From Tubulanus polymorphus (lineage: Eukaryota > Animalia > Nemertea): 64,000 bases of DNA. The notes beneath the pieces are model-generated. The model was not told where the DNA came from, made no database searches, and saw only the letters and a list, made by a program, of their open reading frames with translations. Of the stretch, positions 1-62,615 are shown piece by piece (position 1 is the first letter of the stretch; every line of letters begins with the position of its first letter). A program made the translations under genes and the position numbers. The stretch lies in contig NC_134031.1 of assembly GCF_964204645.1 (NCBI RefSeq), forward strand, positions 11,100,088-11,164,087, in the 5' to 3' direction.

Positions 1-1115
1 AACATAAAACTGTAATACATGAAGAATTATCAAATTATCAAAAAAGAATTAAACCCGAAAATCATATTCATACGGAAAAGTTAATGGTAACTCAAGAAGA
101 TAAATATAATTATGTAGTACAAAATAGAATGTTGAAGTTTTATCTAAAACAAGGAATGATCCTAAAAAAAGTACATAGATATATTTCATTTAGTCAATCT
201 AAGTGGTTAGAAAAATATATAGATTTTAACACCAAACCGAGAACTGAAGCTAAAACTGATTTCGAGAAAGATTTCTTCAAGTTAATGAATAATGCATTCT
301 ATGGAAAAACTTGTGAAAATATTAGAAATAGAAATGATATTGAGTTAGTTAGTAATGGTAAAAGGATAAGGCATTTACAAACATATCCTAAATTTATAGG
401 TAACAGAATATTTGATGAAAATTTAGCTGCAGTTAAAATGAGAAGAACATCTATGAAATTTAATAAACCAATTTATGTTGGAGCATCAGTTTTAGAATTA
501 TCAAAGTTATTAATGTATGAATTCTATTATAATGTATTACAACCTCATTTTGGAGAAAAACATATAGAAATCTTATATTTTGATACTGACAGTTACATAT
601 TAAAGATAAAAACTAATAACATAACTGATGATTTAAAAACATTGAAACATCATTTAGATTTTAGTAATTATCCTAAAAATCATGAATCGTTTGGCAATGA
701 TAATAAAAAGCGACCCGGGAAGTTTCAGGATGAATTAGGTGGTGAAGAAATGATTGAATTCATTGGTATTAGATCCAAAATGTATTCATATAAAACTAAA
801 ACTCATGAATCAAAGAAATTGAAAGGAATTACCAAAAGCGTTGTTGAAAAGAATATTCATTTCAAAGATTACATAAATTGTATATTCAAAGAAGAAGTTA
901 GAAAACATAAGATGAAATGTTTAAGATCTGAGTACCACGAAATGTTTATTGAAGAAATAGAGAAGATAAGTTTGAATCCATTTGATGATAAAAGATATAT
1001 TTTAGATGATGGACTTCACACAGTTGCTTATGGTTGTAATTTAGATGAATACTTAAAATTTAAAAGAGAAGAAACAAAAGAGAACGAGATAATAAAAAGA
1101 ATTCTAACGTGTTAA
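1..1115 (+). CDS. polB: protein-primed family B DNA polymerase, C-terminal part, intein-free allele
   Basis: KLMNNAFYGKT (motif B), YFDTDSY (motif C), KMYSY, NPFDDKRY; near-identical to 61500-62615. Confidence 0.95.
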   Translation, partial: HKTVIHEELSNYQKRIKPENHIHTEKLMVTQEDKYNYVVQNRMLKFYLKQGMILKKVHRYISFSQSKWLEKYIDFNTKPRTEAKTDFEKDFFKLMNNAFYGKTCENIRNRNDIELVSNGKRIRHLQTYPKFIGNRIFDENLAAVKMRRTSMKFNKPIYVGASVLELSKLLMYEFYYNVLQPHFGEKHIEILYFDTDSYILKIKTNNITDDLKTLKHHLDFSNYPKNHESFGNDNKKRPGKFQDELGGEEMIEFIGIRSKMYSYKTKTHESKKLKGITKSVVEKNIHFKDYINCIFKEEVRKHKMKCLRSEYHEMFIEEIEKISLNPFDDKRYILDDGLHTVAYGCNLDEYLKFKREETKENEIIKRILTC

Positions 1116-10119: not shown

Positions 10120-10788
10120 CTAACCACTGATTAAAACCTCAGAATGCGGTTGATTCTGTGAAATACTATTCCATAATTCAACAAATGTCTTTGCTTTAAC
10201 CAGTTGATCTAAATATAACTGTAAATCTAGTTTATTAGATTTAATTATGTTTCCCTTCTTTTCTAAAGGCCTTAAATTTCTCCAGCTCCAGATTAGCTTC
10301 TTATTATAATCATCACTCATGTAAAATTTAGAAATCGGCAACACGTGATCAATATGAAAGTATTCACCATAATTATCTATATTCATTTTATCATCGAATC
10401 GATATATTATCCATGATTTTAAGAATTCATCTGAACAACCCAACAAATTAGATAGTGTTTCTGAATGCGTTTCTTTGTTGAATAATTGTGTTAATCTAGA
10501 TCTTAAACATTGTTTCAATCTAAAATTAATATCTGTTTGATATCTTCCTCTCATATATTCTGTCATATAATCATTGTAAGCTTCTCTATTATCTTCTCGA
10601 TATTGTATGGTATATAGTTTAGTGCAAGTTTTACAGCAATATTGAAAACCATCTTTGCTAATCTTACGCTTACTAAATTCTGTTATAGCTAATTTATCTA
10701 TTTCACATTTAGAACACTTCTTGTAGTATATATTTATGACACCAGTGTTATTTGTAATATTGATAGTTTGTGGTTGTTCTGGTTCCAT
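10120..10788 (-). CDS. HNH endonuclease with N-terminal CxxC...CxxC zinc finger
   Basis: HIDHVLP...NLRPL...N.IKSNK; KKCSKC...CKTC. Confidence 0.85.
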   Translation of the reverse strand: MEPEQPQTINITNNTGVINIYYKKCSKCEIDKLAITEFSKRKISKDGFQYCCKTCTKLYTIQYREDNREAYNDYMTEYMRGRYQTDINFRLKQCLRSRLTQLFNKETHSETLSNLLGCSDEFLKSWIIYRFDDKMNIDNYGEYFHIDHVLPISKFYMSDDYNKKLIWSWRNLRPLEKKGNIIKSNKLDLQLYLDQLVKAKTFVELWNSISQNQPHSEVLISG

Positions 10789-16151: not shown

Positions 16152-16761
16152 TTAAATAAATTCATATTTAAATGGGTGCTGTAATCGAAATAGTAATTTT
16201 GATCTTTTATTATTTTTCAATTTATCCATATATTCATTATGTAAATCATGGGGAATAATATCATTTTCCTCAAGCGCATTTTTCATCGATTTTCTATCTT
16301 TATTGTAGAACAAAACTAAAAATCTAATGTTTTCTCTAAAATCTTTAACAATTGAATTATATTTTTGATTTAAAACCCAAGTTGTTATCCTAAAATGTCT
16401 ACCAGAAAAAAGCTAAATAACATAACTCACTTTCTCTAACTTTTGAATCATGTAAATTTGCGCAATCATCTATAATGAATAATGTATTTGATCCTTTATA
16501 TACATCAATTGCTATTTTAATACAATTATCTAAATTTTCTTTTACTGTTTTAGGATCTAATATAATAAATTTATTATTTTTAGTAATATTTCTATCATAA
16601 GTTTGATTAAATTCATATGTTGGACAAAATAATACTATATTATCAAAATAGTTTTTATAAACAGTTTCTAATAAATTTAATATAAAATAAGTTTTTCCAC
16701 AATTTTTTACACCAGAAATTAACATATTATGAGGCTCAAATATAAATAATTCCTTATTCAT
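16152..16761 (-). pseudogene. packaging ATPase, family B (frameshift near 16400)
   Basis: GVKNCGKT, LFIIDDCA. Confidence 0.9.
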
Positions 16762-17892
16762 TTATATATTTTTAATTTTACTTGATAATATCCATTCATT
16801 GAATTTATTTGGCCATGCAACCCATTGTACTAAAGAATATTTTTTTCTTTAAACAGTTTTTGTTTTTAATACTTTTTCAATTTTATATTCTTGTTCTAGA
16901 TTTTCAGTAGTTAAACTCAATTCTTCTTCATAAAAATACCCATCAACTTCTTCACCATTTAAATCTTCTTATGTATAGACATATGGTTTTGTTGTTATTA
17001 CCTTTTTCATTTTATATATTTCTCTAGTATATATTTCTCGATCGTATCCTTTATCAAATATCTTTTTATACTTAGAAATTCTAAAATTTTGACCAACTTT
17101 AAATTTAGGTTCACTAAAATTATCTACAAGAAATGCTCCATATAAATTATTCCAAATAATTTCAGCATTTTCAGGTTTTCTAGCATCAACAGGTTTCATT
17201 CCAATAGAAGAATGATAAGAATTATTATATCCTTCCATCAATTTTCGTAAAACATCAATCCATTTAAAAGTATTATTTGCTGTAAAATATTTCCACATTC
17301 TTGATCTTAATGTTCTATTAAATCGTTCAACAACTGCTGCTTTTTTATCCGATTTTGTTGAAAAATATTTAATATTATGATTGTCTAAGAGTTCATGAAC
17401 AAGTGAATTATCAAATTCTTTTCAATCATCAAATTGTATTTTTTCTGGTTTTAGTTTATCATCCGAAAGAAATTTTCTTAAAACATTTGATGTTTGTACA
17501 GCATCTTTTCTATAAAGTGGGAAGCTCCATACATAACGACTAAAAATATCAATTATATTCAATAACCACCAATAATCATCATTATCTTTCTTAACATTTT
17601 TCATATCAATTAAATCTCCTTGCCACTGTTGATCTACATAACTTACCATAGTTTTACGAGTTTTATATTTTCTAACAATTTTTTTATGTGTTGTATATGT
17701 TGGTTGTACTAACATAAATTCATTTATATCTTTATATTTAACTAAATTTTGTGGGAATATCTTATCTAATTTATCTTGTTTTACTTGACGCCATATATTT
17801 TTGGTAGAAGAATAAGCAACTGAACTCTCAGGGTTGTAATATAAATTTCTTAAATATTGTTCTTTAGTATTAGGAGTTTTTTTACCACCCAT
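16762..17892 (-). pseudogene. rve integrase plus chromodomain, family B (in-frame stops)
   Basis: WQGDLIDM, IDIFSRY, IQFDD, VERFNRTLR. Confidence 0.9.
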
Positions 17893-17922: not shown

Positions 17923-19170
17923 CTAATATTGAATACTATCTAATTGTGAATTTACAATATTTAATTGTGCGTCAGATATAATATAAATGTGCATTTTGAA
18001 ATTTAAGCTTCCTTTTTTCTTTTTCATAAATAATTGTATTCCATCTTTAGTGTTCTGTAGTTTTTTCCCAAAACCATGTAATGAATTATCCTCTGTTGTT
18101 CTAAAATCTAACCATAATGCATATTTATTGCCGGCATAATTATCAATTTGATTAATATTACAATTTTCAGATGATTTTACTTTTTCATTCATAAAATGTT
18201 TTCTAATTTCTGGCCATTGATCTATCATTCTCATTCCTTGACAAAATATTTTATTTGCTATTCCTTCGATAGTTATTTCTACTTTTGTTATTTCAGGATT
18301 ATAATAATTATCTACCTTTATTGCACCATTAGAATATGTTGCAATGGTAAAAAATATTAATATACTTTTAATAGATCTTCTTGGGGAGTTAATATTCTCA
18401 TTAATAATTTCATCATTTGCATTAATAGTTACGGTTTTAAATTTATCAATATAATCATTGAATAATGAAAATCCTTGATTGTATTGAGTTTGAATTGTAT
18501 TAGGAATATTTTCATTAGTTACTTTATTATATTCTAAACATATATTCGATAATTTATAACCCATATCTTTATTAACGCTAGATAATACAATTTCATTTAC
18601 AGGAGCAAATGTTATTTCGAATATAATATCTTCTTGAATTGCGTATTTATATAAAGGCGCATTATTATTTATCAATTCAAAGTCTAATGGAATTTTATAT
18701 TTGCTTCCATAAATCTTTTTTATCAAATTATCTGTAGCATTAGTTACTATTTCGTCATTAGCTCCTGATCTTAATTTATTTTGGTTTTCCGATTGAATGC
18801 CTTGAAATATCATATTATTTCTATTTTCTTTAGTTAACCATAAATCTTTATAATGTATAAATAAATTATAATCATCTAATGAGAAAACTGTTTCTGGGCC
18901 GATCTTTATAGTTAATTTTTTAATCAAATATCTTCCAACATTATCAACAACATAATTATTATTATTACTGGATACTTTTATATCGGCTGATAAATAAATA
19001 CTATTTGGAACATAAAAAGTATTTTGTGTTAATCTGGGGATTCTAACATATAAAGTTTCATCAGGATTAATATTAGAAGGATTATGAGTAATTATATGAT
19101 GTGATCTTTCTGCTTTAATAGCATTAGATATCCTATGATTCTTAGAAGGATTGATATAACTCCAACTCAT
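17923..19170 (-). CDS. major capsid protein (double jelly-roll), intact 415 aa
   Basis: size, beta-rich pattern, position and conservation across copies (ITHNPSNI, YALWLDFRT, HIYIISDAQLNI). Confidence 0.8.
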   Translation of the reverse strand: MSWSYINPSKNHRISNAIKAERSHHIITHNPSNINPDETLYVRIPRLTQNTFYVPNSIYLSADIKVSSNNNNYVVDNVGRYLIKKLTIKIGPETVFSLDDYNLFIHYKDLWLTKENRNNMIFQGIQSENQNKLRSGANDEIVTNATDNLIKKIYGSKYKIPLDFELINNNAPLYKYAIQEDIIFEITFAPVNEIVLSSVNKDMGYKLSNICLEYNKVTNENIPNTIQTQYNQGFSLFNDYIDKFKTVTINANDEIINENINSPRRSIKSILIFFTIATYSNGAIKVDNYYNPEITKVEITIEGIANKIFCQGMRMIDQWPEIRKHFMNEKVKSSENCNINQIDNYAGNKYALWLDFRTTEDNSLHGFGKKLQNTKDGIQLFMKKKKGSLNFKMHIYIISDAQLNIVNSQLDSIQY

Positions 19171-24309: not shown

Positions 24310-25626
24310 ATGAATGAGAAGATAGGATGTGAAATTTGTGGTGAACTTATCAGAAAAAGTAATATGGCTCGACATATGAAAAAACATGATGAAAAGTATA
24401 AACCCCCTAAAATAAACTGCCCAAAATGTAATGAATTATTCTCAAGAAATTATGTTAAAAAACATTTAGAGAGGTGTAAAATTAATAGCGCAACGGCTAA
24501 TGTTGATAGTAATGAAACTAATAGTAATTCGGTTGAAGTTGAACCTGAAATTATTTGGAAAAGACCTTTCTTATTCTATGATAAGGATAATATAAAAGAT
24601 CGTTTCTGTGAGCCTTGTCGAATGAAATTTAGTCCTGAAAATATAGAAGATTGGGAAAATCATCAATTTCGTAAAATACATATAGATGAAATTTCTAATA
24701 AATTTGAAACTGAATTTAATGAAAGAAAAAATAGTTTATTAGAAAAAATAAAATATGAGAAAACGTTTCCAGATAATGAAGAAACAGTTAGAAAAACAAT
24801 ATAATGAATTAGTAAGATTGTAAATCATTGTAAATATTGTAAATTGATTATTACAACAAGTAATTCAAATCTACATAATAGAGCAATAAAACATAAAGAA
24901 AACGTAAGTAAATACCAAGAACGTAATGAAGATCTATTACCAAGCTATGATAGACAAAAATGCCCAAAACGTATTTATGGGCACTTAAGAGAAGAAGGTC
25001 CTGTGATATTTTGTAATGAATGTGGATGGCAAAGGAATTTATGGGGTGATGAAAAAACTAGAGATATTTTTATAGAACCAAAATTGAAATATCTAGATGA
25101 AATATTTAATATATTTTCTATGGAAGATCATAAACCAGAATATAAGCAATGGCTTGAAAAAATGAAAATAATAGAAAATAAAAATGGTGAAATAACTAAA
25201 AAAGATATAATAAAAACAATTATTCCATCAACATTTAACACACAAGAAAAGAAAATGTATTTATATTTATTAATTAACGATTATTATAAAAAACCTAAAT
25301 TAACAGAAAAAGATATGGAAAATATAAAAGACATATTCAAACAAATATTAAGATATTATGTGGATAATAGAATAACAGATTCAATTAATTATGAATTCTT
25401 CTTAAATAAGATTGTAAATTATTTAAACATCGATATTATAATTCCATTTGATGAATTAACAAACAAAAAGAAACAAAGAGAGCGAGATGAAATGTGGAAT
25501 AATATAGAACTTTATTTAAATGAGAAAAATGAAATTGAAGAACCTAAACAAATTATACAAGAACAATTAAATGAAAAAGAAGAAACCAATAGTGATTTCG
25601 AGTTTGATGATATTGATCCATTTTAA
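24310..25626 (+). CDS. multi-zinc-finger protein fused to a poxvirus VLTF-3 (A2)-like late transcription factor domain; two adjacent in-frame stops at 24802-24807
   Basis: CEIC..H..H, CPKC, CEPC, CKYC fingers; C-terminal CNEC, DIFKQI, SINYEFFLNKI, EMWNNI resemble vaccinia A2 as recalled. Confidence 0.65.
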
Positions 25627-28600
25627 TAATCATAAGGTAATGTTTTTATACCATCATCTGAAATATGTCTTTTATCATCAAATGGATTCAAACTAGTTTT
25701 TTCAACTTCATTAATGTACATCTCGTGATCTTCTGATCTTAAACAATTCATTTTATGTTTCATTACAATTGAGTTATATAACACATTTATATAATCTTGA
25801 AATTCTATGTGTTTATCAACCACATGCTTTGTTATTCCTTTTAATTTTTTAGCTTCATGGTCTTTTGTTCTATAACTATACATTTTACTTCTAATCCCAA
25901 CAAATTCAATCATTTCATCACCCCCTAATTCATCTTTAAATTTACCAGGAATCTTTTTATTATCATTGCTAAATAATTCATGATCTTTGGGATAATTGCT
26001 AAAATAAAAATGATGTTTTAATGTTTTTAAGTCTTTTGTTATGTCATTTGTCTTGATTTTTAGTATGTAACTGTCAGTATTGAACGCAATTAATGGAAAT
26101 CCACAGTTAAATGTACCATCTTCAGTTGATAAATCATAAACATAATCTGTTGGGTTATATATTTTAAATAAATCTTTAACTTCTTCTGTTAACTCATTTT
26201 CTACATGGCTTAAATTAAAGCAATTTGGTTTAGATTTAATCAATCCAATATTCATATTAAAACCTAATGAATTACATAATATATTCAATCCTGATATAGC
26301 AACCTTTCTTTTTTGAGCTAAAGATATTGTTTTGCGGTTTTTGAAACTTTTTGAACTATCTGCAGCATAGAATCCAATGAAGAACCATTTTCTTAAATTA
26401 TTTTTTGCATTTAATACATAATCTGGAACTATCTTTTCTTTTGTTGAAGTATTACTTTTCACTATTGCATGAATATAGAATTCATCATTATATTTTGTAG
26501 CAAAATCTTTAGGATTATTTACAAATATTCTATAAACCGCGGATGATTTCATATGATCCACGATCCTAAATGTTTTATGTGAATAAACTTCTTCGCAGAA
26601 TTTCTTTATTCTTTCTAATAATTTCAAATCTTGATTGCATAAATACCAACGATATTGAGTGCGATTAACATATTTATACACACCTGCTGAACCATCACCC
26701 ATGAAAAATCCTTTGATAAAATATTCTTTTTCTTCTAATGTTTCAGGTTCTATATTATAAATATTATCAATAATTTCATCGAATGACATATGATTCATTC
26801 TTTGGAAAAATCTTTTATGTAATAATTCATCTCCAATTTTTATATCAGTTGGTTTTATTTCATCACCATTTCGTTTAATTAACTATGATCTTCTGTAACA
26901 TCCAAAAACCCTAATTTAGTTCTAACTCTATAGATTTGCTTATTTGTTTCATGTCTAATAATATTCTTTAATTTTTTCCATCCATTTCTTGTCCAAACAT
27001 CTATTAATTCATTTATTTGTATTAATTCTTTTTCACCATACGAAATATAACATTCATTTTGTTTTGGAATTATTTCTGAAATTCTTCTTATCAATATTTT
27101 ATCATTACATTTTAATGATATTGGGGTGGCAGCTGGTTCAGAATCAAAATATAATATTTCAATATGCTTTTCCCCAAAAAGTGGTTGCAAAACATTATAA
27201 TAAAAATCATACATTAATAATTTTGATACTTCTAAAACAGTTGAACCAATGAATATAGGTTTATTAAATTTCATTGACGTTCTTTTTAATTTAACTGCTG
27301 TTAAATAATCTTCAAATCTTTTATTTCCTAAATGTCTAGGACTTGATTGTAAATGTCTTAATCTTTCAGAATTATTTACTAATTCAATATCATTTCTATT
27401 TCTAATATTTTCACATGTTTTACCATAAAAACTATTATTCATTAATTTGAAGAAATCTTTTTCAAAATCTGTTTTAGATATTGTTCTCTGTTGAGTATTG
27501 AAATCAATATATTTTTCTAACCACTTCGATTGATTAAATTCAATATATCTATGCACTTTCTTTAATTTCATTCCTTGTTTTAGATAAAATTTTAACATTC
27601 TATAATGAACGATATTATTGTATTTATTATTTTGAGTAAGTATTAATTTTTCTGTAAAAACATATCTTTCGGTTTTATTTTCTTCTGGTATTCACTTAAA
27701 TAACTATCATCTACGGTTAAATGTTCTGGGCAATAAGGTAAGTTTCTTGTTTTAAACTTTATATTTTCAGGATATTCTAAATCAACTACGAAGAAATAAC
27801 CAATTGGTGCTTCATTTTTTAAACTCGCAATTGCGCTTTCCCAATCAGTTTTATCATCATTTTCAACTTCTGTTAATATAAAATTTTTATATGGTTGAGG
27901 TTGCATCATTGCCCAACCATATAAATTATTGGCGTCAATATATAATAATTTATATTCATCATTTGCTTTAAAATATCTTTCTCCCATAACACCACTAATT
28001 CCACCTCTAATTGATTTTTTCAAATAATAAAACCATATCTGGTTCTTTTAATAAATCTAATTCTACATTTGTATATTTTAAACCACATTGCCAGGTTAAA
28101 CCAGGACTAGAGTAGCAATAACAAGGATCAACATTAAAATGATTCAAATTAACTTCTCTAAATTTTTCAAATATGTCAGCCAATATCATAACATCTGATT
28201 TTAAATATAAATCAACTAATTCACCATGATTTTTCATCTTAAAATGGTTCCAAATATTTAATGTTCTATTAAACACTTCATCTTTCACATACTCCTCTTT
28301 TAATTGATCATAAAATTGATCTTTCAATAATTTTGTTACATTAAAATCATCATGTGTTTTATAAAATGAATAAGGAATTGCGCCTTTATATCTCAATAAT
28401 TCAAAATCTTGTTCATTTGGATAATAATGTCGAGTTATTATAAAATCATTATCAACTAAACTTTTTGATAAATTATCTAATGAACTTGCTAGAAATCTAT
28501 AAGAATCTAAAAATCTAATGCAACCAAATTGAAATGAAATATAATTTTCAGATGTTTTAGCTAATAGTTTAAAATCATATTTTCTTACATTTACACCATT

Positions 28601-30683
28601 CATAGCATTATATTCTTCTATTTCTTGATTAATTGTGCCCAATTTTCCTGATAATTGTTTTATAAATAGATGGGTATCATAGCCTGATAAATTATGAAAT
28701 AATATTGGTACGAAATTAACTTTCTTAGCTTGTAAATTGCAATCTTCATGAGCAGCTCCACGATATTTTGAATTTAAATGATCATGATCTCTAACTTTTT
28801 TATCAAATGAATAAAAACGTTTTTCACAATAACAACAATGAGTTGCATAATTAAAATCAATTTCATCTTCTTTTGTCATAACTATTCTTTTATTTTTGTT
28901 TAATAATTTTGCAAAATCACTTTCTAATTATTTTGTTACAAAAATTATTAACTACATCTTCACCTCTAAAAGAAATATATTGACTTTGATATAATTCAGG
29001 ATAATTTGATTTTATATAAATTCCATAAGCAGCAGCTCTTTGATGAACTTTTTTAATTGTGTTTATAATTGGTGGATCTTGTGTTGTGTCTTCATTTAAT
29101 TCATTTCCTTTTATCCATTGATTTTAATAATTGCTTTTTGTTATATATTTCTTTTCTATCTTGATCAGTTAATTCTTTATTCAACGATTCAAAATCCCCA
29201 TAAATTACAAATGGAACAATATTCTTAAATTTATGATTAGTAAATTTCAATTTATAATCTTTTTCTGTTGGCATTATTAATTTACAAAAATCTTTATTAT
29301 CTCATAATTCTTTATGTTTTAGTATAGCATTCTCAGTTCTAAATTTAGATAAACATTTTCTACATAGATACATTTTATGACTGTTAAAATCACTTTCTGT
29401 TCTAAAGAATAAATCAATTTGTTTTAACCACATATAATGTTCCTTTTCATCTTTTTTGTAATATAACAAATCTATAGCATTTTCATCATAATAATATTCT
29501 GTTAAATATAAAGCTTCCAATGTACAATCTTTAATATTTTCACCTTTTGTCTCTGGTAATTGCATTAATTCGAATACATTTATTTTTAACTTATTAACTT
29601 TTTCTATTTTGGGTATCATTTTTATAGTTACTGGATATTGATCAATTTTATATAATGTTTCATATTTCCGGTAATTTGTTATTCTAAATCTATGATTAAT
29701 ATCTTCTGTTGGATGTAAGCAACTAATAATTGACCATAGAAAACATTTATTATCTTCATTTTGAACATTTATTACTGCTTTTGTTGTAAATGGTAATTTA
29801 ATATAAGATGATGCTTTAATATCCTTTTCTGTTATAAAGTTTGTATCATTTTTAAACATTTTATTACTTTTTGATGTTTTATTTCTTTTTGTATTATAAA
29901 CATTTAAATCTAAATATATAATTTCATTTAATGATAAACCAGAACCCTCAAAATGAATTTCTTCAATATGACGTTTAAATTAATTAAATATTTTTTCTAA
30001 CTTCTCTTTTATTTGTGTTTTTGAAATTATTTCTTCAGAGAGTGTTTGAATATTATAATCCATTTTTTAAAAAAAAAACTTACTTTCCCAGAGATACTAA
30101 TTTTTGGATATTCAACATCTGTTATCAAATCTAGTATTTTTTCTATTATTTCATTAAATTTACTATAATCTTCTATTGTTATACCTTTAAAAAATCTAAA
30201 TATAATAGCTGCAGGACCACTTTTACTATGTAATGTTTCTAAAATTTCAATTGTATCTATTATTTCAAGAGTATCGATATAATTTCTAACATTTTCAATG
30301 TAGGGTTTATTTGAAATGGATTTAGTTTTTGAAGTTGGTTTTTTTACTTTTTGAGGTTTATCATCGAAATAATCTTTTCCTAAAACATTATTACTCAAAT
30401 TTTGATGGTGTTTTTGTGATTCGAGATGTCTATTATAATTCCTTTTTACTATAAATTCATTACAAAGTTCACATTTTATTTCATCCACATTCATATTTTC
30501 TAATCGTTCTTTTCTTTCATTGGAATTTTCTGAAGTTTCAAAATCTATAACATTTTTTATATGATTTGAAGATTTTTCATGTTTAGATTTATTAGATTTA
30601 TCGATGTATTGTTTACAATATGGACAATAATATTGATTTTTATTAACATTATTGTTTTCTGGCTGATGTTCATTCTCCCCCAT
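25623..30683 (-). pseudogene. polB: protein-primed DNA polymerase B, family B, intein-containing, several frameshifts and stops
   Basis: N-terminal zinc fingers, NKCFLW, EndoVII-like RDHDH..AHEDCNL, FHNLSGYD, YIDANNLYGWAM, KLMNNSFYGKT, YFD^TDSY. Confidence 0.95.
26079..27142 (-). other. LAGLIDADG homing-endonuclease intein (~355 aa) at the Pol-c site; 1-bp frameshift near 26880
   Basis: starts Ser (SEPAATPI) after YFD; block B DVTEDHS(L); GFFMGDG and GFYAADS motifs; block F YVYDLSTEDGTF; ends Asn before +1 Thr; absent from the other pPolB copies. Confidence 0.95.
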
Positions 30684-34381: not shown

Positions 34382-34693
34382 ATTAGGGTTTTCTGACTTT
34401 CGTCGAAAACCCTTTTGTAATTCTGTTGATTGTTATTATTATTATTTACATATTTTCCACTTTTTTTCGCACATAAAATTCATCTTCTATCAGATTCGAC
34501 AACTAACTGCTTCTAATTGAAATGTGAAATTCTGATAGTAATATAACACGCATTCGCTCCGCGTAGATTATATCTATGCACTCTCCGTCCTATTTTAAAC
34601 TTAAAATTACTTACTGAAAGATAACACCGGATGATAGTAACAATCGCGACTCGCCCTGTCGGTTACTCCCACTAACGATAAAAACAGCGTCCT

Positions 34694-34764
34694 GTCCTGT
34701 GGCATGGTGGATAAAGTGATGACTCCCAACTGAGAGGTCGAGGGTTCGAATCCTAGTGAAACCA
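34694..34764 (+). pseudogene. tRNA-derived sequence
   Basis: TGGCATGGTGG A box, GGTTCGAATCC B box. Confidence 0.65.
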
Positions 34765-36429
34765 TGCATTATCACAGTGCACGGCGCGCAACAATTGTTT
34801 TATTAATGAAACAACATGGTGGATGGTTGAAATCATTTTCGGCTTAAATCTATCGCGAGTTTTAGGACTTTAATGAATTTCACGAAACCATGATTTCTAA
34901 AATGAGTCAATTGATTAATTCTATTCGTAAATCAATTTACGTTGGCTACATTTCCTGAAGATTTCGGGGTCAAATCAACGTGATATGGACAGAAATTGTA
35001 GGAATTTTCACACGGAATTTTACTTCCGCGTTCAGTTGACGACTCGGATCGATGACAACGACAGCGGAGTTTATGTATTTTAAGGTGAGAATCCGTTAAC
35101 CAGGGAATGTATTAAATGATTTCTTTAATAGTATGAGTATGGTAGCAAATGAGCAGGCCTACTCGGTGAAGCAATGATCATTGTTGGCTACTTACTTAAT
35201 GCCTAGCTTTTTCTGGGGGATGCCCCTAGAATAGATTTAGGCCCTAAATATAATGGGTAGAGCCAGTCAGTGGAATGCCCTAATAGCAGCTAGTTATGGC
35301 CTGGTTTACACTGAATGTGCATGACAATTTATTTTGATTACTTTCTTTCCAGCTATTATTCGTGGAATGAACTGGTTACTACGGTCTTCAATTCCTTTGC
35401 GGATTCTTGCAGGAATATTAAACCACAGTGCGCAAATGTATGTTTCAAATTAGGCTTTTTCGACATTGACAGCCAAAGACGTAACTTAACACGCTAACTG
35501 AAGCGCAACTGTCTCAGATGCTGTAAGTACTTGACGTTTTGCGTAATTTTTTTTTTGTAATGCAATATTTGGATAAGTAATCAGTCGTGCTAACGTACAT
35601 GCAGAATTGGATTCATTGTAATTATGGGATGATAATTCATGGGCGTCACGAGTCCTGCGACATACCCTTGATATGAAGCTTTTTTAATGTTAATCATTGA
35701 CTTGTTTTGGAGTAAACTGAATAGCCCTTATAATACCAATGCCACGTGGCTTGGTGTCTATGCTCTACGAGACTGTAGTAATAGATTTTCACAACAAACT
35801 CATGATTTCAAATAGTCTCCTAAGATATCTATATATTATTTCGCTCCTTACCTAAGTAATTCTTACATTTGATTGCTTAATTACAGATGGAAAGAGGTCA
35901 GATGGCATGAAAATCGACTGTGGCTGACTAATTGGCGCGAGTAACAAAAACTCTTCAATCATCAGGGGTAGACAAATTAGCCAAAGATGAATGAAAACTT
36001 CACCTTGATGATCATCAATTGATTTTGCTGTAATTATTTGCCTGGATATATCCTTCATTTCAAAATCTGTCTTCAATAGAATTTCTTTCAATAAAATATT
36101 TTGAAGATTGAATTTGAATTGATCTTAAAACCAGAGGAAGCATTCAGAAATTTAGAAAATCCTTGACTCATAATCGAATTCTGTGAATTCCATTAAGGTC
36201 TTTTTGGTCGAATCAAGCCGAGGGCTCAGGTGACTAAAACTCAATTCCTCGCTGTCTTATAATGCCGAGTACGACGGAGTTTACACACTGAAACACGTTG
36301 GGCTGTGTAAGTGTAATTTGGATAGGTCCACAATACAATGACCGCCCTGCCCCGCTGCATCTGAGACGTCAACAAGTTAGACTGTATTGCTTCGATGACA
36401 AACTGACTCAACTTTGACTTTGACTTTGA

Positions 36430-49580: not shown

Positions 49581-50287
49581 TTATAAAGATTCAACGTATT
49601 TTTCATTATGTGTTGAGTTCCATAATTCAACAAATGTCTTTGCTTTACACAGCTGATCTAAATATAATTTTAAATCTAGTTTGTTTAATAATCTCCGAAT
49701 ATTTTCAACTTTTTCTAAAGGTCTTAAGTTTTTCCAGTTCCAGATTGATTTCTGATTGTGTTCATCATTCATGTTGAATTTAGAAATCGGCAACACGTGA
49801 TCAATGTGGAAATATTCACCATAGTTTTTTTCATGCATTTTATCATCGAATTGATAAACAATCCATTATTTGAGAAATTCATCTGAACCCCCAATAAATT
49901 AGATAGTGTAACTGAATGCGCTTCTTTACTGAATTTTGTTAATCTAGAACTTAAACATTGTTTCATTTTAAAATTAAAATCTGATTGATATCTTTCTTTA
50001 TGATATTCATTAAAATGTTCACGATTATTATCCCTCCATTCTCTCATATATTCGTGGTGATTTTCTCTCCATTCCTTTTGATAATCTGGGTTATTTGCTC
50101 GGTATTGCTTATTCATTTCCTTAACACAAGTTCTACAATAACTTTGCTCACCATCTTTCTGGGTTTTATAATTATAATATTCCGAGAGTTGTTTATCTAA
50201 TTCACATTTAGAACATTTCTTGTTGTAAATATTTATAACCCCAGTATTATTTGTAATATTGATAGTTTGTGATTGTTCTGACTCCAT
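49581..50287 (-). pseudogene. HNH endonuclease, frameshifted
   Basis: homolog 10120-10788. Confidence 0.85.
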
Positions 50288-50510: not shown

Positions 50511-51159
50511 ATAAAATGTAATACGAAACGAAAATTTTGTAATTTTTTGCGCTATAGCAGCGGATTCGTGGAGCTGGCTTAAACATGAGCACCCGGTCTA
50601 GTGTGGCAGGGTTCCGTGCCACGAGTTTAGCGATGCCATCAGGGAGAATGATCTGCGCATGCTCATATACAACTGGAAGGTAGCGATTAATAAATTACGG
50701 GTTAGAGAACGAAGTGTGCCATAAAATATATCCTGCAGTGTTTAGGCTAAAAAATTGATACCTCGTTTCTCCTCTGCTGAGGAGCTTAAAAGTTGACCCG
50801 ACCGGCCGCTAATCTACCCTGTACATTAATTTTTTCTAAGCTAAATGATCGATACTAGACAGATTCAGATATGTCGGCCCATGTTGACACATGTGGTCAG
50901 CAGTATCGCACTGTATCATTTATTTTCCATTATCAAAATGAAATTAAGTAAGACCTTTACCCTGTCTGGATTTTGCAAGGGATGCGGATTCGAAAAGAAA
51001 ATTCACGGCCGGAATTTTTTTCAAATTGCTCGTCACTACGCTGTTAAGCGGTAAAAAGATCGTCATGTAGTCCATGTGTAGGGCCTATCATTTCACTATA
51101 GTAGTTAGGGTATGTCACTATGGGGCCACAGTGGAGGGAGGAGGGAGGAGGGAGGAGGG

Positions 51160-51330
51160 ATGACGTCATACCGGAAGTGACGTCATACCGGAAGTGACGT
51201 CATACCGGAAGTGACGTCATCCAAGATGGCGACCGGAAGTGACGTCATCCAAGATGGCGGCCGGAAGTGACGTCATCCAAGATGGCGGCCGGAAGTGGCG
51301 GTTGAATTTCAAATTTTTGGCGGGAAAATT
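51160..51330. promoter_or_regulatory. tandem CRE/ETS/YY1 array with an E2F site
   Basis: TGACGTCA, CCGGAAGT and CAAGATGGCG repeated; TTTGGCGGGAAA. Confidence 0.85.
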
Positions 51331-51681
51331 CAAAATTTTTCCGTTAAATCCAAATCAAATTATTGACAACAAATCCAAATCAATTTATTGGCGGTGTTAA
51401 ATCCAAATCAAATTTATTGGCGGTGTTCAATCCAAATTTATTTATTGGTATGATTGAATCCTAGATGGCGCTTACGCATTCCTATGCGTGTTTATGGGAA
51501 AAGTTGAATCCTAGATGGCGCTATTACGAGATCATATGTGTACGTGGAGGTGAGGGGGAAGTGAAGTTAAATCCTAGATGGCGCTTTTCCCTGAGTACGG
51601 GCAAATTCGAGACAAAGAAAACCAAAAATTAAAAAAACAATGTAAAACAATAAAAAAAAACATTTTATTCACCGTTAAAAT

Positions 51682-52242
51682 TTAGTTTAAACACGGTTTA
51701 AATCCAAATTCCTTGGCGCACGAGACGTGAATATAAGCGTCGCAGCAGTCTGTCTTTTGTTTAGTTATTTCCAAACATATTAAACACGTGTTGATGCCAC
51801 AAAATAAAGTTATGCAGTTATAACAAAAATTTTCTTCATACCCTTCACACGTTTTAAGTTCGCTTAAACAGGGCCAGCATATAGTTTTATCACAACAATG
51901 AAGCAAATCCTCTTGCGCGTGACAACGATAACAGTCTTTTTTCGCGATATGTTTGATAATCCTAAAATGTGCCATGCAATTCTCGATAGGACATTCGAAA
52001 TCATGTTGAACGCCTAACCATCGAGCGTTCACTAGCCAGCAATCTTCACAAATCGGTTTCCTGCAACACGTCGTTACTCGAAAACTACCGTATGTAATTG
52101 TCGTATTACAATATTTGCAAATCGCAAATCTGGTAGACCAGTCGATATCTTCAAAGTCGACATGATTTATTTCATGTTCCGTGGTAGTTGATTTTTTTTT
52201 TTTTAGGAAAATGTTTTCCACGGTAAAAAAATCGCCAGACAT
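51682..52242 (-). CDS. Cys-rich protein with three RING-like repeats
   Basis: CxxC..CC..ICxxC..CP pattern occurs three times; AATAAA downstream. Confidence 0.65.
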   Translation of the reverse strand: MSGDFFTVENIFLKKKKSTTTEHEINHVDFEDIDWSTRFAICKYCNTTITYGSFRVTTCCRKPICEDCWLVNARWLGVQHDFECPIENCMAHFRIIKHIAKKDCYRCHAQEDLLHCCDKTICWPCLSELKTCEGYEENFCYNCITLFCGINTCLICLEITKQKTDCCDAYIHVSCAKEFGFKPCLN

Positions 52243-52643
52243 TTTCGTAAGTCACGTCTCGTTTATGCGAGTGTAAACAAAGCGAGTGCGCAGTTAAATC
52301 CTAGATGGCGCTAGTCCGTAATCCTATACAGATGCGTGCGCATGCGTGCGTTTGTGTGTACGTGTGTAAGCGAGTGACGTCATCCTAGATGACGCCATGA
52401 TTATATAATCCTATGCGAGCGCGTGTATAGAGAGGGGAGCGGGGTTAAATCCAAGATGGCTTCTTTTGACGGCTATTGTGAAATCATAGACAAGTTTAGG
52501 CGAACATATTTCGTAACATGTAAAACCATAAAACGATTTCGGGTAAGTCATTTTCTGACAATAAAAACGCGTTGCAAATCCATAATTTAGTCATTCTGCT
52601 CAGAGACTTTGAACCGTCAACATCATAAAACATCATCGTAATA

Positions 52644-53471
52644 ATGGATTCGGCCAGCGGACAAAGTATTTTAGAAATATCTAATACACCAGTTAAAGCA
52701 AAGTCATCGCTTCAATCTAGAAAAAGAAAACACCCCTCGCTGAAACTCGACTTTAGTAAGTTTCTACTTATTTCCCGTATTCGAAACCGTCAAATATTAA
52801 AATATACGTATACTGATATATAATATTTTATTGTTCTTTTAGGTTCGATCGTTAATGACAACGCTGTCGCCGGCCCGTCGAAAAGTGCGAACTTGCGTAA
52901 CACCTGGAACAATGACCCCGAACCCCATTATCTGGGATCTCTTGTTTACGCGAGTGCGAAAACGTGGCAGGGGGTAAAACGTGTAGATTTACGGTCCTAC
53001 GAGTGCTGTGAACGAAGAAAACAACTGTATCCCACTAAAAACGGTATTTCGCTCGATCTCCAAGAGTGGGTGCATATAGATTTTTGTAAATCCGATATCG
53101 AACACGAAATTGCGCGCGTTAAAGAAGATATCGAATACGTGGGTGTAATGACTGTTGGTCGTACGAACTTTATCAAAATATATAGGTCTAGTCACGATCA
53201 TCGTATTTACGTAGATATCCGAAAATACGATCTATTCGATGAACCTCTCGGTGTTTCCCCGACTAGATGCGGTGTAAAACTAACATTGGAACAATGGAAA
53301 AAATTGAAAGACATTAATTTTAATGACGATATACCCGAACTAGCCAACATGACGCCCTGTTGGTATGATTCGAGTCACTCGAATCAGGAATACAGGTGTC
53401 CGTACTGCGCAAAAGACACTTCTGGAGTACGAAAAACACCTGAATACGGTGTAATGATCACCCAAGTATAA
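52644..53471 (+). CDS. spliced gene (52644-52755, 52843-53471), 246 aa, NLS plus two PC4/Sub1-like domains and a C-terminal CPYC
   Basis: GTAAGT..TTTTAG intron keeps the frame; VDLR..PTKNGISL..QEW and YVDIR..PTRCGVKLTLEQWKKL. Confidence 0.8.
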
Positions 53472-54344
53472 TTTCACAGATATTAATTAGATAATATTTA
53501 TATCGTAACCGAACAACAAAATATGTAAAATACATCAATTTATATACGTTAGTTTGCGTTAAACTCTTAGATAGAAATAAGTATCCGAAATGACTAATCC
53601 AGGACTTCATTAAGATCCGCTCTAACCAAAGAGGATTAACTAAAGTAGTGAGTTTCTATCTTTTATGAAATTTATGGTTTTTTCATGTATAGGTATATGA
53701 CCTATGTTTATCTACAATATTTATAAAAATATTTATGTTTTTTAGGACTAAATAAAACATTAATTGAATAAAAGATTTCATTTTTGACTCATTCTGAGTT
53801 ACGTTAATCTAGCATTTCGTTGCTATCCAGACCCATGATACCATATACCGACAAAGAAGGCAATTAATTGATTTAGATCAATACATGACCACGATTGGGG
53901 AAAATAGGTGTGAGCAAAACCAATTACCTAGACTAGTAGCAGATGGGTCGATAGTATCCAAACACCATTAATTATATGTGGAAGACGAAGGCAATTAAGT
54001 GATTTAGATCGGAGACACGTCCGAGATGGGAAATTATGTGTGAGGTTTCAAACCAATTACACTAGCAATAATTCGAACATTTTTAGTGCTCATAGCGCTG
54101 AGGTAATTAAATTGTTTAGAAAAAACCGAACAGATGGTCCTATATGCTGGGTGATATTAGACCCGAGTATCAAAAACAACGTTAATTATATGTGATAGAA
54201 TCCTCAAATACTTTGAGTAAACTGTTAGACTATGAGAATTAATCAACTAATTAGTCGTCTGACTTAGACCCATAAATAAGGGGGTAGTTTTAGGACAAAT
54301 CATTTCCAAGATGTCTGTTATTGGAGCACTAAAATAGTAGCCGA

Positions 54345-54661
54345 AATGTTACGTTCGAACTTTATCAAGATATATGGATCTAGTCACGATCACCGTATTA
54401 CGTAGATATCCGAAAATACGATCTACACGATGAGCTTTTCGACGTAAATCCGACTAGATGCGGCGTAAAACTAACATTGGAACAATGGAAAAAAATTGAA
54501 AGACATTAATTTTACAGAAGATATATCCGAACTGGCTAATATGAGACCGTGCTGGTACGATTCGAGTCACTCGAATCAGGAATACAGATGCCCGTACTGC
54601 GCAAAAGACACAAGCGGGGTTAGAAAGCACCTGAATACGGTATAATGATAACCCAAGTATA
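54345..54661 (+). pseudogene. diverged duplicate of the 3' half of the PC4 gene
   Basis: matches ~53155-53471 with frameshifts. Confidence 0.85.
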
Positions 54662-56384
54662 ATTAAAGTAATTTAAAACCGCTCTGACCAAAAGAGGATT
54701 AACTAAAGTAGTGAGTCTTTTACGAATTTTTATACGTAGCGACTCATTCGTCATCTACCGGATTGTATAAATAAAAGCCATAACCCGTGTATATGTATAA
54801 TATTTTTGGAAAAAAAAAAAATTATGTTTTTTAGATGAACGAGTAAATAATAAACTTGCAATGTATATAATATTTCATATCTGTCTCATTTTATTCGGAT
54901 TTACTCTATAATAATCAAGCATTTTGTCGTTGGCCAGACCCCTTGATACAAAATATCATCTATGAACGTAATTAAGTAATTGAGAAACAAATACCATTGA
55001 CCCATGGTTAGCATCTACCATCTAAAATATCTGGTCAGTACCCTCGATGATATGTGACGGAATATGCAGGATAAAAATTACGCAATTAAGTAATTGAGAA
55101 ACAAAAACCATTGACTCGTTGTTAGCATCTGCCGAATAAGTTATTTAGATCAGAGACACAACCGCGATTGGGGAAATTAAGTATGAGCAAACCAACTATA
55201 GTATATATTTGTTGGTTGTTTGTTGATTGACTGACGCGATTAAGCTGTTTGGAAAACCTAGACTAGTAACAGATGGTTTTCTACGGCGAGTTTATAGAAA
55301 TATAATTTAGAAACGACAAAATTCATATACATAATAGTTTATTATAGAAGCTTAAAATATTTCACGATAAATTTTTCTTTTACAAAATAATCATTATCAT
55401 TAGTTTTATTCGACAATAGTTTCGTAATATCGCGTACATCGTTACCGTGACATAGGTGCAATAGTACAAATATTGCGTAATAACAGAAATACATCGGATA
55501 ATACGTTTTGATACATCTTATTATTATATTTCCAATCTATACAATTTTCATCCAAGTATTTTTCTAACATTTATCACAAGTTCCGGTATGTTGCCCGAAC
55601 GAATCAAAAATAACCGATTCCGTAATCGTTTATTATACAGTTAGCCAATGTTCACCCGGTTCGTCGTAATTGTCAGTGTTTACTATAAAACCCAGCGGGA
55701 CGCTGGTTTATATCTGGTAGTCGATCGCATGGAAAAACGCCAAAGAAAGACGCTTTTAGATATTTCTCTAGTATAACTATTAACATATCGCAAGCGAATT
55801 TATTAACGTTACAATCTCATGGATGAATCGAAAAAAACGATTACTTTACTTTACTTTTGCTTTATTTGACAAACTCTTGGTCTTAATACAAAGACAATTC
55901 GAGTGATACAGTATACATAAAAATAAATACATTATATATAGGACGCACAGTAGATAGATACGTAATTACACATTGATTTTCATGTGAGCTATCAATTGAA
56001 AAGTTTCAAAATTCTTCCAACAAAAATACACAGTTTACGGAGTTCGGCTATATCTTTAGTTTGCATTAATAATTTTTATCTGAAAATGTTGGGGGTTCGT
56101 ATAAAATCTCCTGTCTAGGTATAACTCCCTTCTATCATTTAAATATATACAGTTGAAAAGGTAATGAAATTCGTCCCCAATTCCATTATTACACAATTTA
56201 CATATTCTTTCAGCACGCTCTACAGTATTCCATCGGCCAGTTTCTATTGGGAGCTTATGGTTTGCAGGACGGAATTTAGTTAAATAAATTATGAGGTTAA
56301 CTGAAAGATCAGATACTAGATGGTTACGGGGCTTGACTCAATTCCACGCGCTTGGACATGTTCTAATGTTATGTATTGTATACA

Positions 56385-57676
56385 AAGTGTTGACAAGCTC
56401 AATTTATACAGCATTGTAGCCCTCCGGCATTTTCAAAGTTTTAGATGATTTATCAATAGAAATACTCTTATAATGCGCATCCTAGTGCGTTAGTGTTTAA
56501 GTGATTTTAGTGTTTTAGTGTCGAATATGTAAAACCGCAGTTTATTAGATTTCGAGTTGTAAGCATTTCCCGATAACTTACATTGATTATAATGCAGAAT
56601 TCTTTATTTCCAGTTAACGAGGTTAAACAATTTTTCAGTTTTTAAAAAATATGGTTTGGACTTTTTTAATAGGAAAATACTAACAGGTTTGATGAAAAAA
56701 TAGAAAATGGGATTTCCGGTTTTATCATTTTTCAGTATATGGCGTTTTAGTAGGATGATGATTTTAAATTTTCAATAAACGCGGTATAACAATTTTTAGG
56801 TTTTTGAAAAATATGGTTCCAAAGTTTTGTATACACAAGAGATTTTAAACAACGAAACTACACACACATGTAACTAAATCACTTTAGTCTTTCCAAATAT
56901 AGAGAAATAACAGACAAAAATATGTATATGTATATACTTTATCTTTTTTTCGCATCGCTTTTTCTTTGTTACAAAATTCCCAATTTTTATAAACTTTTCT
57001 TAAATATTTATGTTTTTTAAACATATTTCCCCATACTTTTACATTGCAATATTATATCGAGATTTTCTACATTTCATGCATTTTACAGCTAGACCTTGTA
57101 AAGATTTGGTACATTAAATAACGCAGCAGGTAAACATTTCAATTGTATTACTTCGTTATGCGTAAATGTTTCGCGTCATCTTCCTACAATATGTGACTGC
57201 TATCGGCAGAAATATGGTAAATTAGGAATTAACATATCTTAAGTTAGCTTCACTTTTCTTAGCTACTCTTACAGAAACCAAGTATGGTTAAAAGTTCAAA
57301 CGATCTTCAAGCCGCATGAATCGATCAACAGTATGCCATTTACTGACCGTGACTCGTGGCTACATTCGTATATATGGTTATGGTCAAGAAAAAGAAATGA
57401 ACTAGTTTAAGTTGGAAAGCATAAAATGTTCTAGTACAAATATCTGGTTAGTTTGCTTAGTCTAAACCATACTTTCACTAACTTAAGAAATTGATGAACC
57501 TCATAAACTGAAAATTAAGTTTGAGGTACTAAAAGATACTAAAACGGTAAAATCACTTAAATACTAACACACTAGGATGCGCATTATAGGAATATTTCTA
57601 TTGATAAAACGGTGGACTCGCACACTTTGGACATACCGGGGACAACAGTGTAGTATAAATTGAGCTTGTCGACACT
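56385..57676. repeat. ~140-bp imperfect inverted repeats (56385-56522 / 57535-57676)
   Basis: ATAATGCGCATCCTAGTG vs CACTAGGATGCGCATTAT; GACAAGCTCAATTTATAC vs GTATAAATTGAGCTTGTC. Confidence 0.8.
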
Positions 57677-58230
57677 CTTTGTTCTACCACCCGGATGGTG
57701 GTGCTACTGAGATTTGTGCCCATATTCGCTATATGCATTTTTATCGTATCCCCTATGCACGACCGTTTCTTTTCTAAATATGGTAAATTAGGAATTTTTA
57801 TAGATTCTTGTTACCTCTATGTACCAATGTTTGGTTAGGGGAATTCCATTCTATTCCCGACAATCGCTCGATTTTCGTATTTGTCCCAGCCCATTTTCGC
57901 GCTTTTGACAAAAAAAAGTGAAACTACATTACAAGCGTGTGTAATCGAGAAATGTTTAAAACTTACAATCTAAACTTTGGTATAAATTTGGATGCTGTGA
58001 GACATTAAAACAATGACCATAAAGTTGCGCATAATAGGAATATTTCTACTGATAACTTGTGGGGTCTTTAAACTTTATAAAAACCTATATATTAAGCTTG
58101 CTTAAATAGAATTACTTCCAAAAGTGGTCGAACATGCGAATGCGTTAACGTTGATATGAAAACCAGAAAAACACGTCGGTGGCGTTTTAGATGACAACAA
58201 GTAGGGATATATTGTTTTACATTAAAAAGT

Positions 58231-58497
58231 AGTAATAGGGATAATGGGCTTTCAAGCCAAAGGTCGAACGGTCGAGCTCGTAAAAAATGAAAAACATAAA
58301 AATAATTACAATTTCTACTTGAATTACTCGCAAAACTCATAAAAATGAAAAATAAATTCTCACACGCTCGAATTTATTTTTCATTTTATGAGTTTCACTC
58401 CTAATTCAAGTAGAAATTGTAATTATTTTTATGTTTTTTCATTTTTACTCACCCGCCCGTTCAACCTTTAGCTTGAAAGCCCATTATCCCTATTACT
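58231..58497. repeat. terminal fold-back palindrome (267 bp)
   Basis: AGTAATAGGGATAATGGGCTTTCAAGC...GCTTGAAAGCCCATTATCCCTATTACT. Confidence 0.92.
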
Positions 58498-58577
58498 CTT
58501 AAAATATTCATATATATGAATAACATTTAAATCATTGAACTTCTAAAATCAATTTTAATAAAAAATTTAGTATTAAA

Positions 58578-61500: not shown

Positions 61501-62615
61501 AACATAAAACTGTTAAACATGAAGAATTATCAAATTATCAAAAAAGAATTAAACCTGATAATCATATTCATACTGAAAAGTTAATGGTAACTCAAGAAGA
61601 TAAATATAATTACGTTGTGCATTATAGAATGTTGAAGTTTTATTTGAGACAAGGAATGATATTAAAAAAAGTACATAGATATATTTCATTCAGTCAATCT
61701 AAATGGTTAGAAAAATATATAGATTTTAATACTACACAGAGAACTAAATCTAAAACTGATTTCGAGAAAGATTTCTTCAAGTTAATGAATAATGCATTCT
61801 ATGGTAAGACTTGTGAAAATATTAGAAATAGAAATGATATTGAGTTAGTTAGTAATGGTAAAAGAATTAGACATTTACAATCATATCCTAAGTTTATAGG
61901 TAACAGAATATTTGATGAAAATTTAGCTGCAGTTAAGATGAGAAGAACAAGTATGAAATTTAACAAACCGATTTATGTTGGAGCTGCAGTTTTAGAGTTA
62001 TCAAAGCTATTGATGTATAATTTTTATTATAATGTTTTACAACCTCATTTTGGGGAAAAACACATAGAAATTCTATACTTTGATACTGACAGTTATATAT
62101 TAAAGATAAAAACTGATAACATAACAGATGATTTAAAAACATTAAAACATCATTTTGATTTCAGTAACTATCCTAAAAATCATGAATTGTTTACCAATGA
62201 TAATAAAAAAGTTCCCGGTAAATTCAAAGATGAATTAGGAGGTGAAGAAATGATTGAATTCATTGGTATTAGATCTAAAATGTATAGTTATAAAACTTAA
62301 ACTCATGAATCAAAGAAATTGAAAGGAATTACCAAAAGCGTTGTTGAAAAGAATATTCATTTCAAAGATTACATCAATTGTATATTTAATGAAGAAGTTA
62401 GAAAACATAAGATGAAATGTTTAAGATCTGAAGATCATGAAATGTATATTGAAGAGATAGAGAAGATAAGTCTAAACCCATTTGATGATAAAAGATATAT
62501 TTTAGATGATGGAATCCACACAGTTGCATATGGTTGCAATTTAGATGAATATATAAAATTCAAAAGAGAAGAAACAAAATAAAATGAGATTATGAAAAGG
62601 ATTCTAGCGTGTTAA
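58578..62615 (+). pseudogene. polB: protein-primed DNA polymerase B, intein-free, single frame with three premature stops (59802, 62298, 62580)
   Basis: zinc fingers, DKCFLW, RDHDHLNGKFRGAAH, FHNLSGYD, YIDANNLYGWAM, KLMNNAFYGKT, YFDTDSY. Confidence 0.95.

Follow-up and report, generated by a model that had tools for sequence, protein, structure and literature searches.

Results

Polinton genes and other elements of the window

The window (the whole 64-kb stretch of DNA that was analysed) is occupied by a cluster of nested, decayed Polintons with a GC content of about 24% over the elements. One of these extends leftwards from about position 30,650 and harbors, on the minus strand, the gene of a protein-primed family B DNA polymerase (pPolB) that is divided by an insert. 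Its N-extein (27143..30650) ends in YFD and was detected as a Pfam match (PF03175, E 2.5e-9 on 28010-28927) and as tblastn pieces with frame changes near 30,070, 29,115, 28,925, 28,020 and 27,670; the C-extein (25623..26078, minus strand), assigned by its motif and by tblastn pieces, begins with the +1 Thr of TDS. Since these five frame changes add to a frameshift within the insert, the intein-bearing copy is a pseudogene. An Endonuclease_7 (HNH-like) insert is present in this pPolB as well. The same Polinton includes, all on the minus strand, a fragment of an A32-like packaging ATPase (16399..16761; PF04665, 29.7 bits at a cut-off of 22.8), an rve integrase that is split by a stop and stays below the Pfam cut-off (16969..17892; PF00665, E 2.3e-6) and a look-alike of the double jelly-roll major capsid protein (17923..19170; Atlas 0.97-0.98). 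The latter is a lead only; some of its Atlas clusters are Capsid_N or DJR-like at 10-24% of members, and its recognition value is 1860. Together with the pPolB, these genes make up the set known from Polintons or Mavericks (adintoviruses), the capsid gene by Atlas likeness only. The first-pass annotation of this DNA had named a Polinton pPolB as the host gene, and the PF03175 match and the integrase, ATPase and capsid-like neighbours bear this out.

When the ends of the intein-bearing copy were searched for terminal inverted repeats and a target-site duplication, no match resembling a terminus was found near either of them; the copy is truncated among the nested copies. A terminus of the third Polinton with an AGTAGT start was identified (58226..58500, plus strand), and 1,182 reads have loose ends before 58,231 (agreement 0.34); because these reads enter unlike flanks at about 58,229, this family must have integrated at many places. 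A zinc-finger-rich ORF with one stop (24310-25626, plus strand) lies tail-to-tail with the pPolB and is missing there in both neighbouring copies. An ORF with CxxC pairs and a HIDH motif occurs in two copies (10120-10788 and 49581-50287, both minus strand); it has no Pfam match and presumably resembles an HNH-type endonuclease.

No host gene, structural RNA or tRNA was detected in the 64 kb by Pfam, Rfam and ARAGORN. A short stretch at 34690-34770 resembles a tRNA, with motifs like the A and B boxes; it was not called by ARAGORN and is probably the head of a SINE. A second repeated element that is not a Polinton spans 51130-58230, is covered 50-140 deep by the reads of run X6 (see below) and harbors tandem TGACGTCA/CCGGAAGTG/CAAGATGGCG boxes; the arrays at 51,161-51,297 are what we take to be ETS-, CRE- and YY1-like boxes. 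This element also contains a Cys-rich ORF (51682-52251, minus strand), a double-PC4 ORF (52824-53471, plus strand), which recurs in decayed form near 54,350-54,660, and a fragment resembling a protease (55673-55816, minus strand). A 93-aa fragment resembling the C-terminus of a LINE reverse transcriptase was found at 56056..56337 (minus strand; Atlas 0.97, no Pfam match). Its nearest Atlas clusters are 100% Eukaryota with Mollusca as the commonest group, at a recognition value of 2195, below the mark of 2300.

The insert in polymerase motif C

The insert comprises 1,064 nt (27142-26079, minus strand; a multiple of three plus two) and lies exactly between the Asp and the Thr of motif C (...HIEILYFD and TDSYILK). 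This is the Pol-c site, between YxD and TDS, and the neighbouring copies read YFD-TDS unbroken. Every motif that the first-pass annotation had listed was located, and the insert is described here as a class 1 intein with a LAGLIDADG homing-endonuclease domain (26079..27142, minus strand, as are all its parts). The N-terminal splicing region (26882..27142) contains Ser1 (27140-27142), block A and block B with its TEDH (DVTEDHS, 26882-26902). The first and second LAGLIDADG motifs, GFFMGDG (26691..26711) and GFYAADS (26355..26375), each have their acidic residue. In the C-terminal splicing region (26079..26144), block F (YVYDL, 26130-26144) and a GFPLI motif are followed by the terminal Asn (26079-26081) and then by the +1 Thr. 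The class 1 residue set of Ser1, block B TxxH, block F Asp, terminal Asn and +1 Thr is therefore complete. The penultimate residue is Phe, which had been pointed out as a departure from the usual His. However, this is not unusual: the position is occupied by Ser in the homologue P0003 (see below) and by Lys in P0001 and P0165, and 67 of the 161 relatives in the intein alignment lack the His, so that Phe is no strong sign of loss.

As had been noted earlier, a single frameshift near 26,880 interrupts the intein and divides it into an N-terminal piece of 87 aa and a C-terminal piece of 267 aa. The intein N-terminal model TIGR01445 matched the 87-aa piece with 24.5 bits (E 4e-5; cut-off 24.5 bits) and LAGLIDADG_3 (PF14528) matched the 267-aa piece with 30.1 bits (cut-off 22.5 bits), while Pfam Intein_splicing and TIGR01443 matched neither piece taken singly. 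A PDB sequence search with the two pieces gave no match below E 0.4; a protein search for the intein in a database of 1.84 billion returned 548 proteins at E<=0.001. The GC content at third positions is 13-16% in the intein and 12-18% in the extein, a value that cannot date the intein because its viral relatives are equally AT-rich. Judged by its sequence, the insert is almost certainly a real intein.

An intact homologue and other pPolB-linked inteins

The JGI protein P0003 is an intact pPolB of 1,693 aa (PF03175) with a 354-aa intein at YGD-TDS that is 59.8% identical to the window intein. In at least three fragments, P0001 (NCBI), P0002 (JGI) and P0165 (ENA), pPolB sequence is joined to the same intein; in P0002, Ala replaces the catalytic Asp before the intein. 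All pPolB-linked rows retain the splicing and nuclease residues that they cover. Between the window intein and P0003, 104/176 residues are identical in the nuclease and 57/87 (N-terminal) and 25/42 in the splicing parts, and the nuclease is thus about as conserved as the splicing part. An AlphaFold model of the P0003 intein built on a 37-row alignment reached a pLDDT of 88.3, whereas a single-sequence fold gave only 40. In a PDB structure search, the model matched TliVMA, PhoVMA, PI-PkoII, PI-PfuI and PI-SceI (E 1e-17 to 1e-9) and also the I-DmoI fold. The top matches are solved inteins with a homing endonuclease, and in this model the intact homologue adopts the HINT fold. Among viral models, it matched the PolB of phycodnaviruses, Pandoravirus, Marseillevirus and Megavirus, the last at rank 7 with 24% identity. 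A profile search with A3 against the PDB yielded mostly extein matches, the best intein being PI-PkoII (E 1.5e-13). From these records, the intein is very probably resident in a Polinton lineage and not a one-off.

Six short proteins in ENA (P0054, P0056, P0067, P0082, P0145 and P0180), encoded on contigs of 63-239 kb, resemble decayed Polinton-type inteins; the four of them that were placed in trees group with the Polinton inteins. They possibly represent a second host lineage with many copies. P0202, a Polinton pPolB with 56% identity to the window copy, is a UniRef entry under a Sulfurimonas bin, a filing that is probably due to eukaryotic contamination of that bin.

Filled and empty alleles in the window and in reads

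The window contains two further pPolB copies, which read HIEILYFDTDSYILK without an insert; their empty sites are at 584/585 and 62084/62085 on the plus strand. Compared with the flanks of the filled site, the second Polinton copy (555..614) has one mismatch in 30 nt at the site and the third (62055..62114) has four in 30 nt. Among 11 sequencing runs, five contain part of the window, four of them from one organism (A); four runs were aligned to the intein region. Elsewhere in the window, X1 contigs 276-513 nt long deviate by 1-3 letters, and organism A therefore belongs to the species of the window or to a very close one. Run X6, which consists of 1.93 Gb of raw DNA reads of organism A, covers the bins of the intein about 100-255 deep; in a comparison stretch of 14 kb, the depth falls to about 22-30 in the thinnest bins. 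If the genome measured 0.5-2 Gb, such a depth would amount to roughly 50-250 copies. The frameshift near 26,880, for which a raw-read check had been suggested, is not shared by 187 of the 240 X6 reads spanning it. Only 100 of the 5,511 reads over the window intein region are at least 99% alike, which makes the window copy a diverged member of its family. The exact empty site was found in 35 X6 reads that join both flanks, and 33 further reads derive from a related empty allele. The insert is thus absent from homologous alleles in the window and in reads, in frame in the intact P0003 and frameshifted in the window copy; the end-to-end integrity of any single copy in organism A is beyond the reach of short reads. 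In the marine metagenome run X5, one contig of 197 nt covers the intein, which is too small a basis for naming a habitat.

Relatives outside the Polintons

The non-Polinton matches listed are almost all inteins of ordinary PolB, with a few of topoisomerase II. When viral contigs were scanned, 37 loci were obtained, of which the best lie on giant-virus bins; in prokaryote genomes, 11 distant loci were detected, all archaeal. The best outside match was the giant-virus contig L004 (39% and 42%), while jumbo-phage (31%) and archaeal (20-25%) inteins are more distant. No intein-carrying Polinton was detected in the viral-contig scans with the window piece and with a two-row alignment, and the intein is absent from three viral contigs with a related pPolB. 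A degenerate pattern of the first LAGLIDADG motif matched no viral contig and no prokaryote genome. It had three matches in metagenomes (two archaeal-type reductase loci and one giant-virus-type PolB), none of them a Polinton. Among 50,697 records of annotated phages, one weak match of 25.5% was obtained. None of the 120 pPolB homologues listed contains an intein, in a length range (457-1,455 aa) that excludes full filled alleles. The closest of these 120 show 79-81% identity, and the only named eukaryotes among them are Haliotis and Leptopilina (38-39%, 3 of 120 rows); one more row bears the name of a bacterial bin.

Trees of the intein and of the extein

Intein trees were calculated with FastTree from 167 rows (15 near-duplicates dropped) and with IQ-TREE in quick mode from 50, 34 and 29 rows. 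With archaeal and jumbo-phage outgroups included, the Polinton inteins branch outside all giant-virus-type inteins (support 86-98). When these distant outgroups are omitted, they form a clade (99) inside the giant-virus inteins, joined (89) to seven rows comprising the giant-virus contigs L004 and L009, three similar PolBs and two T4-like gp43 proteins. The AU test rejected neither position (p 0.52), the nested tree being 0.39 log units higher. The first-pass annotation had proposed the PolB of a large DNA virus as donor; the nearest outside relatives indeed lie there, but nesting depends on the choice of outgroup, and such a donor is therefore likely and not proven. The annotation had also likened the insert to the Mimivirus intein. 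In the supplement of PMC5784728 the start of the Niemeyer virus intein has the motifs named there, but it is among uncultured giant-virus contigs and the polymerases of T4-like phages, and not in Mimivirus itself, that the nearest relatives are found.

Further characters bear on the donor. The terminal motif Gx-P-LI occurs in 10 of 161 rows, four of them linked to pPolB and six in one virus clade, and the spacer between block B and the nuclease has 57 residues in four Polinton-type rows and 57-60 in the virus clade. P0003 has YGD before the intein, as do 128 of 140 Pol-c rows, whereas none of the 45 empty pPolBs that match YxDTDS among the 120 listed has YGD. This flank in P0003 is as co-conversion would leave it, although YGD is found in only one of the three filled alleles with an N flank, the window copy and P0002 being without it. 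Going by these sequence comparisons, the donor was probably a large DNA virus.

The five pPolB-linked records form or adjoin one intein clade, the inner branching of which follows the pPolB tree, with empty alleles between them. In an extein tree of 39 rows (including 32 chosen from the 120 homologues), the filled or empty state changes at least five times, and the best or near-best extein match of each filled allele is an empty allele (88%, 94%, 85% and 76%). This is the pattern of a family and not of one recent jump. In the comparison of intein and extein trees that had been proposed as a check, the trees are congruent among the five records; within the diversity of pPolB, the intein is limited to a small part. 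We read this pattern as suggesting one old invasion, upkeep by homing among close relatives and repeated loss.

Discussion

Predicted splicing and homing

Inteins excise themselves by attack of Ser1, transfer to the +1 Thr and cyclisation of the terminal Asn, which here would restore the catalytic YxDTDS. An intact copy would encode a polymerase precursor of about 1,700 residues. Its predicted splicing relies on Ser1, the Thr and His of block B, the Asp of block F, the Asn at the end and the +1 Thr, by which the intein would be excised and YxD rejoined to TDS. Since this is the catalytic motif, polymerase activity would depend on prior splicing. Polinton copies that lack the intein are the predicted target of the LAGLIDADG domain, which would cut their empty site, whereupon repair would copy the intein in; homing of this kind would account for filled and empty alleles side by side. 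The same splicing residues are listed for the Mimivirus intein in the available part of PMC549080. Taken together, we consider it likely that a Pol-c intein, frameshifted in the window, belongs to one Polinton pPolB lineage in what is likely an animal genome, that its acquisition from a large DNA virus, out of the PolB gene, is old and that it persists by homing. More tentatively, and short of what we would call likely, active homing among the many Polintons of an animal germline could constitute a natural gene drive within an endogenous virus family, with splicing-dependent replication. It would go back to an encounter between a Polinton and a giant virus in one cell, and the decayed relatives on other long contigs suggest its presence in several animal lineages.

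Alternative explanations

The main rival to upkeep by homing is passive inheritance, in which a real intein that no longer homes entered once, was inherited vertically, spread with Polinton transposition and was lost by recombination with empty copies. Vertical descent with losses gives the same congruence of intein and extein trees as is seen among the five records, intein and extein have diverged alike between the window and P0003 (about 60%), and P0002 has lost its catalytic Asp. However, both LAGLIDADG acidic residues and a conserved Lys are retained at 60% overall identity, the nuclease does not decay faster than the splicing domain and the filled and empty states alternate repeatedly on the extein tree, so that we regard passive inheritance as somewhat unlikely. 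That the Polinton intein does not derive from giant viruses at all, being instead an old sister lineage, an arrival via phage or the product of reverse transfer, seems improbable to us. The outgroup-rooted trees would fit such an origin, as would the T4-like gp43 proteins P0050 and P0053, which carry the same subclade and score nearly equal to L004, but long-branch pull can account for the former. Moreover, the rare terminal motif and the 57-residue spacer are common to Polinton inteins and one derived virus subclade, P0003 has the YGD flank, the intein occupies a small part of pPolB diversity only, yet is widespread in PolB, and the jumbo-phage and archaeal inteins are clearly more distant.

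Two further alternatives concern the DNA itself. If it came from a protist, fungus or symbiont, the intein would be new for Polintons but not for animals. The 64 kb without host gene, rRNA or tRNA would allow this, and Polintons and viral inteins do occur in nuclear genomes of protists and algae, according to the available part of PMC10710043. Against this stand the LINE-like fragment closest to Mollusca clusters, Haliotis and Leptopilina as the only named eukaryotes among the 120 pPolB relatives listed, the tandem boxes presumed to be ETS-, CRE- and YY1-like, and the fact that the Polinton and the stretch with the LINE fragment are both covered by reads of one organism. A non-animal source thus has only a small chance of being correct. 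On these indirect clues, of which the LINE-like fragment is the main one, the host of the intein-bearing Polinton is very likely an animal; to name a mollusc or another marine invertebrate would be a guess. An assembly chimera of a Polinton and a contaminating giant virus might be suspected from the unlikeness of the window copy to nearly all reads at many places. It is refuted by reads and contigs that span both junctions and by independent pPolB-intein records from JGI, NCBI and ENA, and the boundaries lie exactly within the motif, which leaves a chimera a practically negligible probability.

Known systems and implications

The intein resembles the Pol-c (site III) inteins in the PolB of Nucleocytoviricota, for example those of Mimivirus R322 (PMC549080, as far as its available text goes) and of phycodnaviruses (supplement of PMC5784728, available part), in occupying the equivalent of YGD-TDS, in Ser1, Asn and +1 Thr, in two LAGLIDADG motifs and in size (351 aa in Mimivirus, 354 aa in P0003). 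The DVTEDHS of its block B is also found in 57 entries of the PMC5784728 supplement, whereas its GFPLI terminus is found in none of that survey, and the best identity of the Polinton intein to any viral row is 39-42%. Unlike in these viruses, the host gene is a protein-primed PolB (PF03175 and not PF00136) and the carrier is an integrating Polinton. Known inserts of Polinton pPolB are HNH and VSR domains, with no splicing domain described in the available parts of PMC10748475 and PMC11071308, while a full HINT and LAGLIDADG arrangement within motif C is found here. The latter paper, in its available text, suggests that pPolB nuclease inserts stem from 'intein invasions', citing the HNH and VSR domains; the word 'intein' occurs 0 times in PMC10748475 and PMC8502044. 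Virus-borne inteins in eukaryotic nuclear genomes are likewise described for the endogenous giant-virus polymerases of Klebsormidium, Tetrabaena and Hondaea (PMC10710043, available part). These are giant-virus genes in algae and protists, in contrast to a multicopy transposon-virus with filled and empty alleles in a likely animal. Hedgehog HINT domains of animals share the fold and a related chemistry with inteins (PMC5784728 and PMC8529194, available parts), but they do not ligate exteins, have no nuclease and are not optional inserts with empty alleles; the available part of PMC10075465 contains only a Hedgehog/Intein domain.

Inteins are stated to be absent from metazoan genomes in the available parts of PMC5784728 and PMC8529194. 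This absence is also invoked to justify intein inhibitors as drugs. The open full-text literature searched, including PMC12220804, describes no intein in a Polinton or an animal genome, and the supplements of PMC5784728 (four files) and PMC10710043 (two files) have no Polinton or Maverick entry. By our searches of the full-text literature, no intein in a Polinton or in any protein-primed PolB had been described before this one; its chemistry and site are known, the host gene family is new and the host kingdom is likely new. It would be an exception to the absence of inteins from metazoans that arose via an endogenous virus, the intein lying in a viral passenger gene and not in a host gene. It would further mean that an intein crossed between RNA-primed and protein-primed B polymerases at their one common motif, which bears on how inteins reach distant homologues, and it would document physically that Polintons and large DNA viruses have exchanged genes. 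Many copies, some filled and some empty, coexist in a single genome, which makes homing, loss and co-conversion directly measurable with long reads.

Further Pol-c inteins were noticed among the relatives. P0042 is a PolB of 1,483 aa with a Pol delta C4 zinc finger and a Pol-c intein and represents either a Pol delta of cellular origin or a viral enzyme that resembles it. P0050 and P0053 are T4-like phage polymerases (phrog_262, 547 and 262 bits) with Pol-c inteins of a giant-virus subclade, the giant-virus loci of which are L004:8001-9092 and L009:8001-9083. Inteins of the same subclade in the PolBs of T4-like phages and giant viruses point to an exchange of inteins between phages and eukaryotic viruses.
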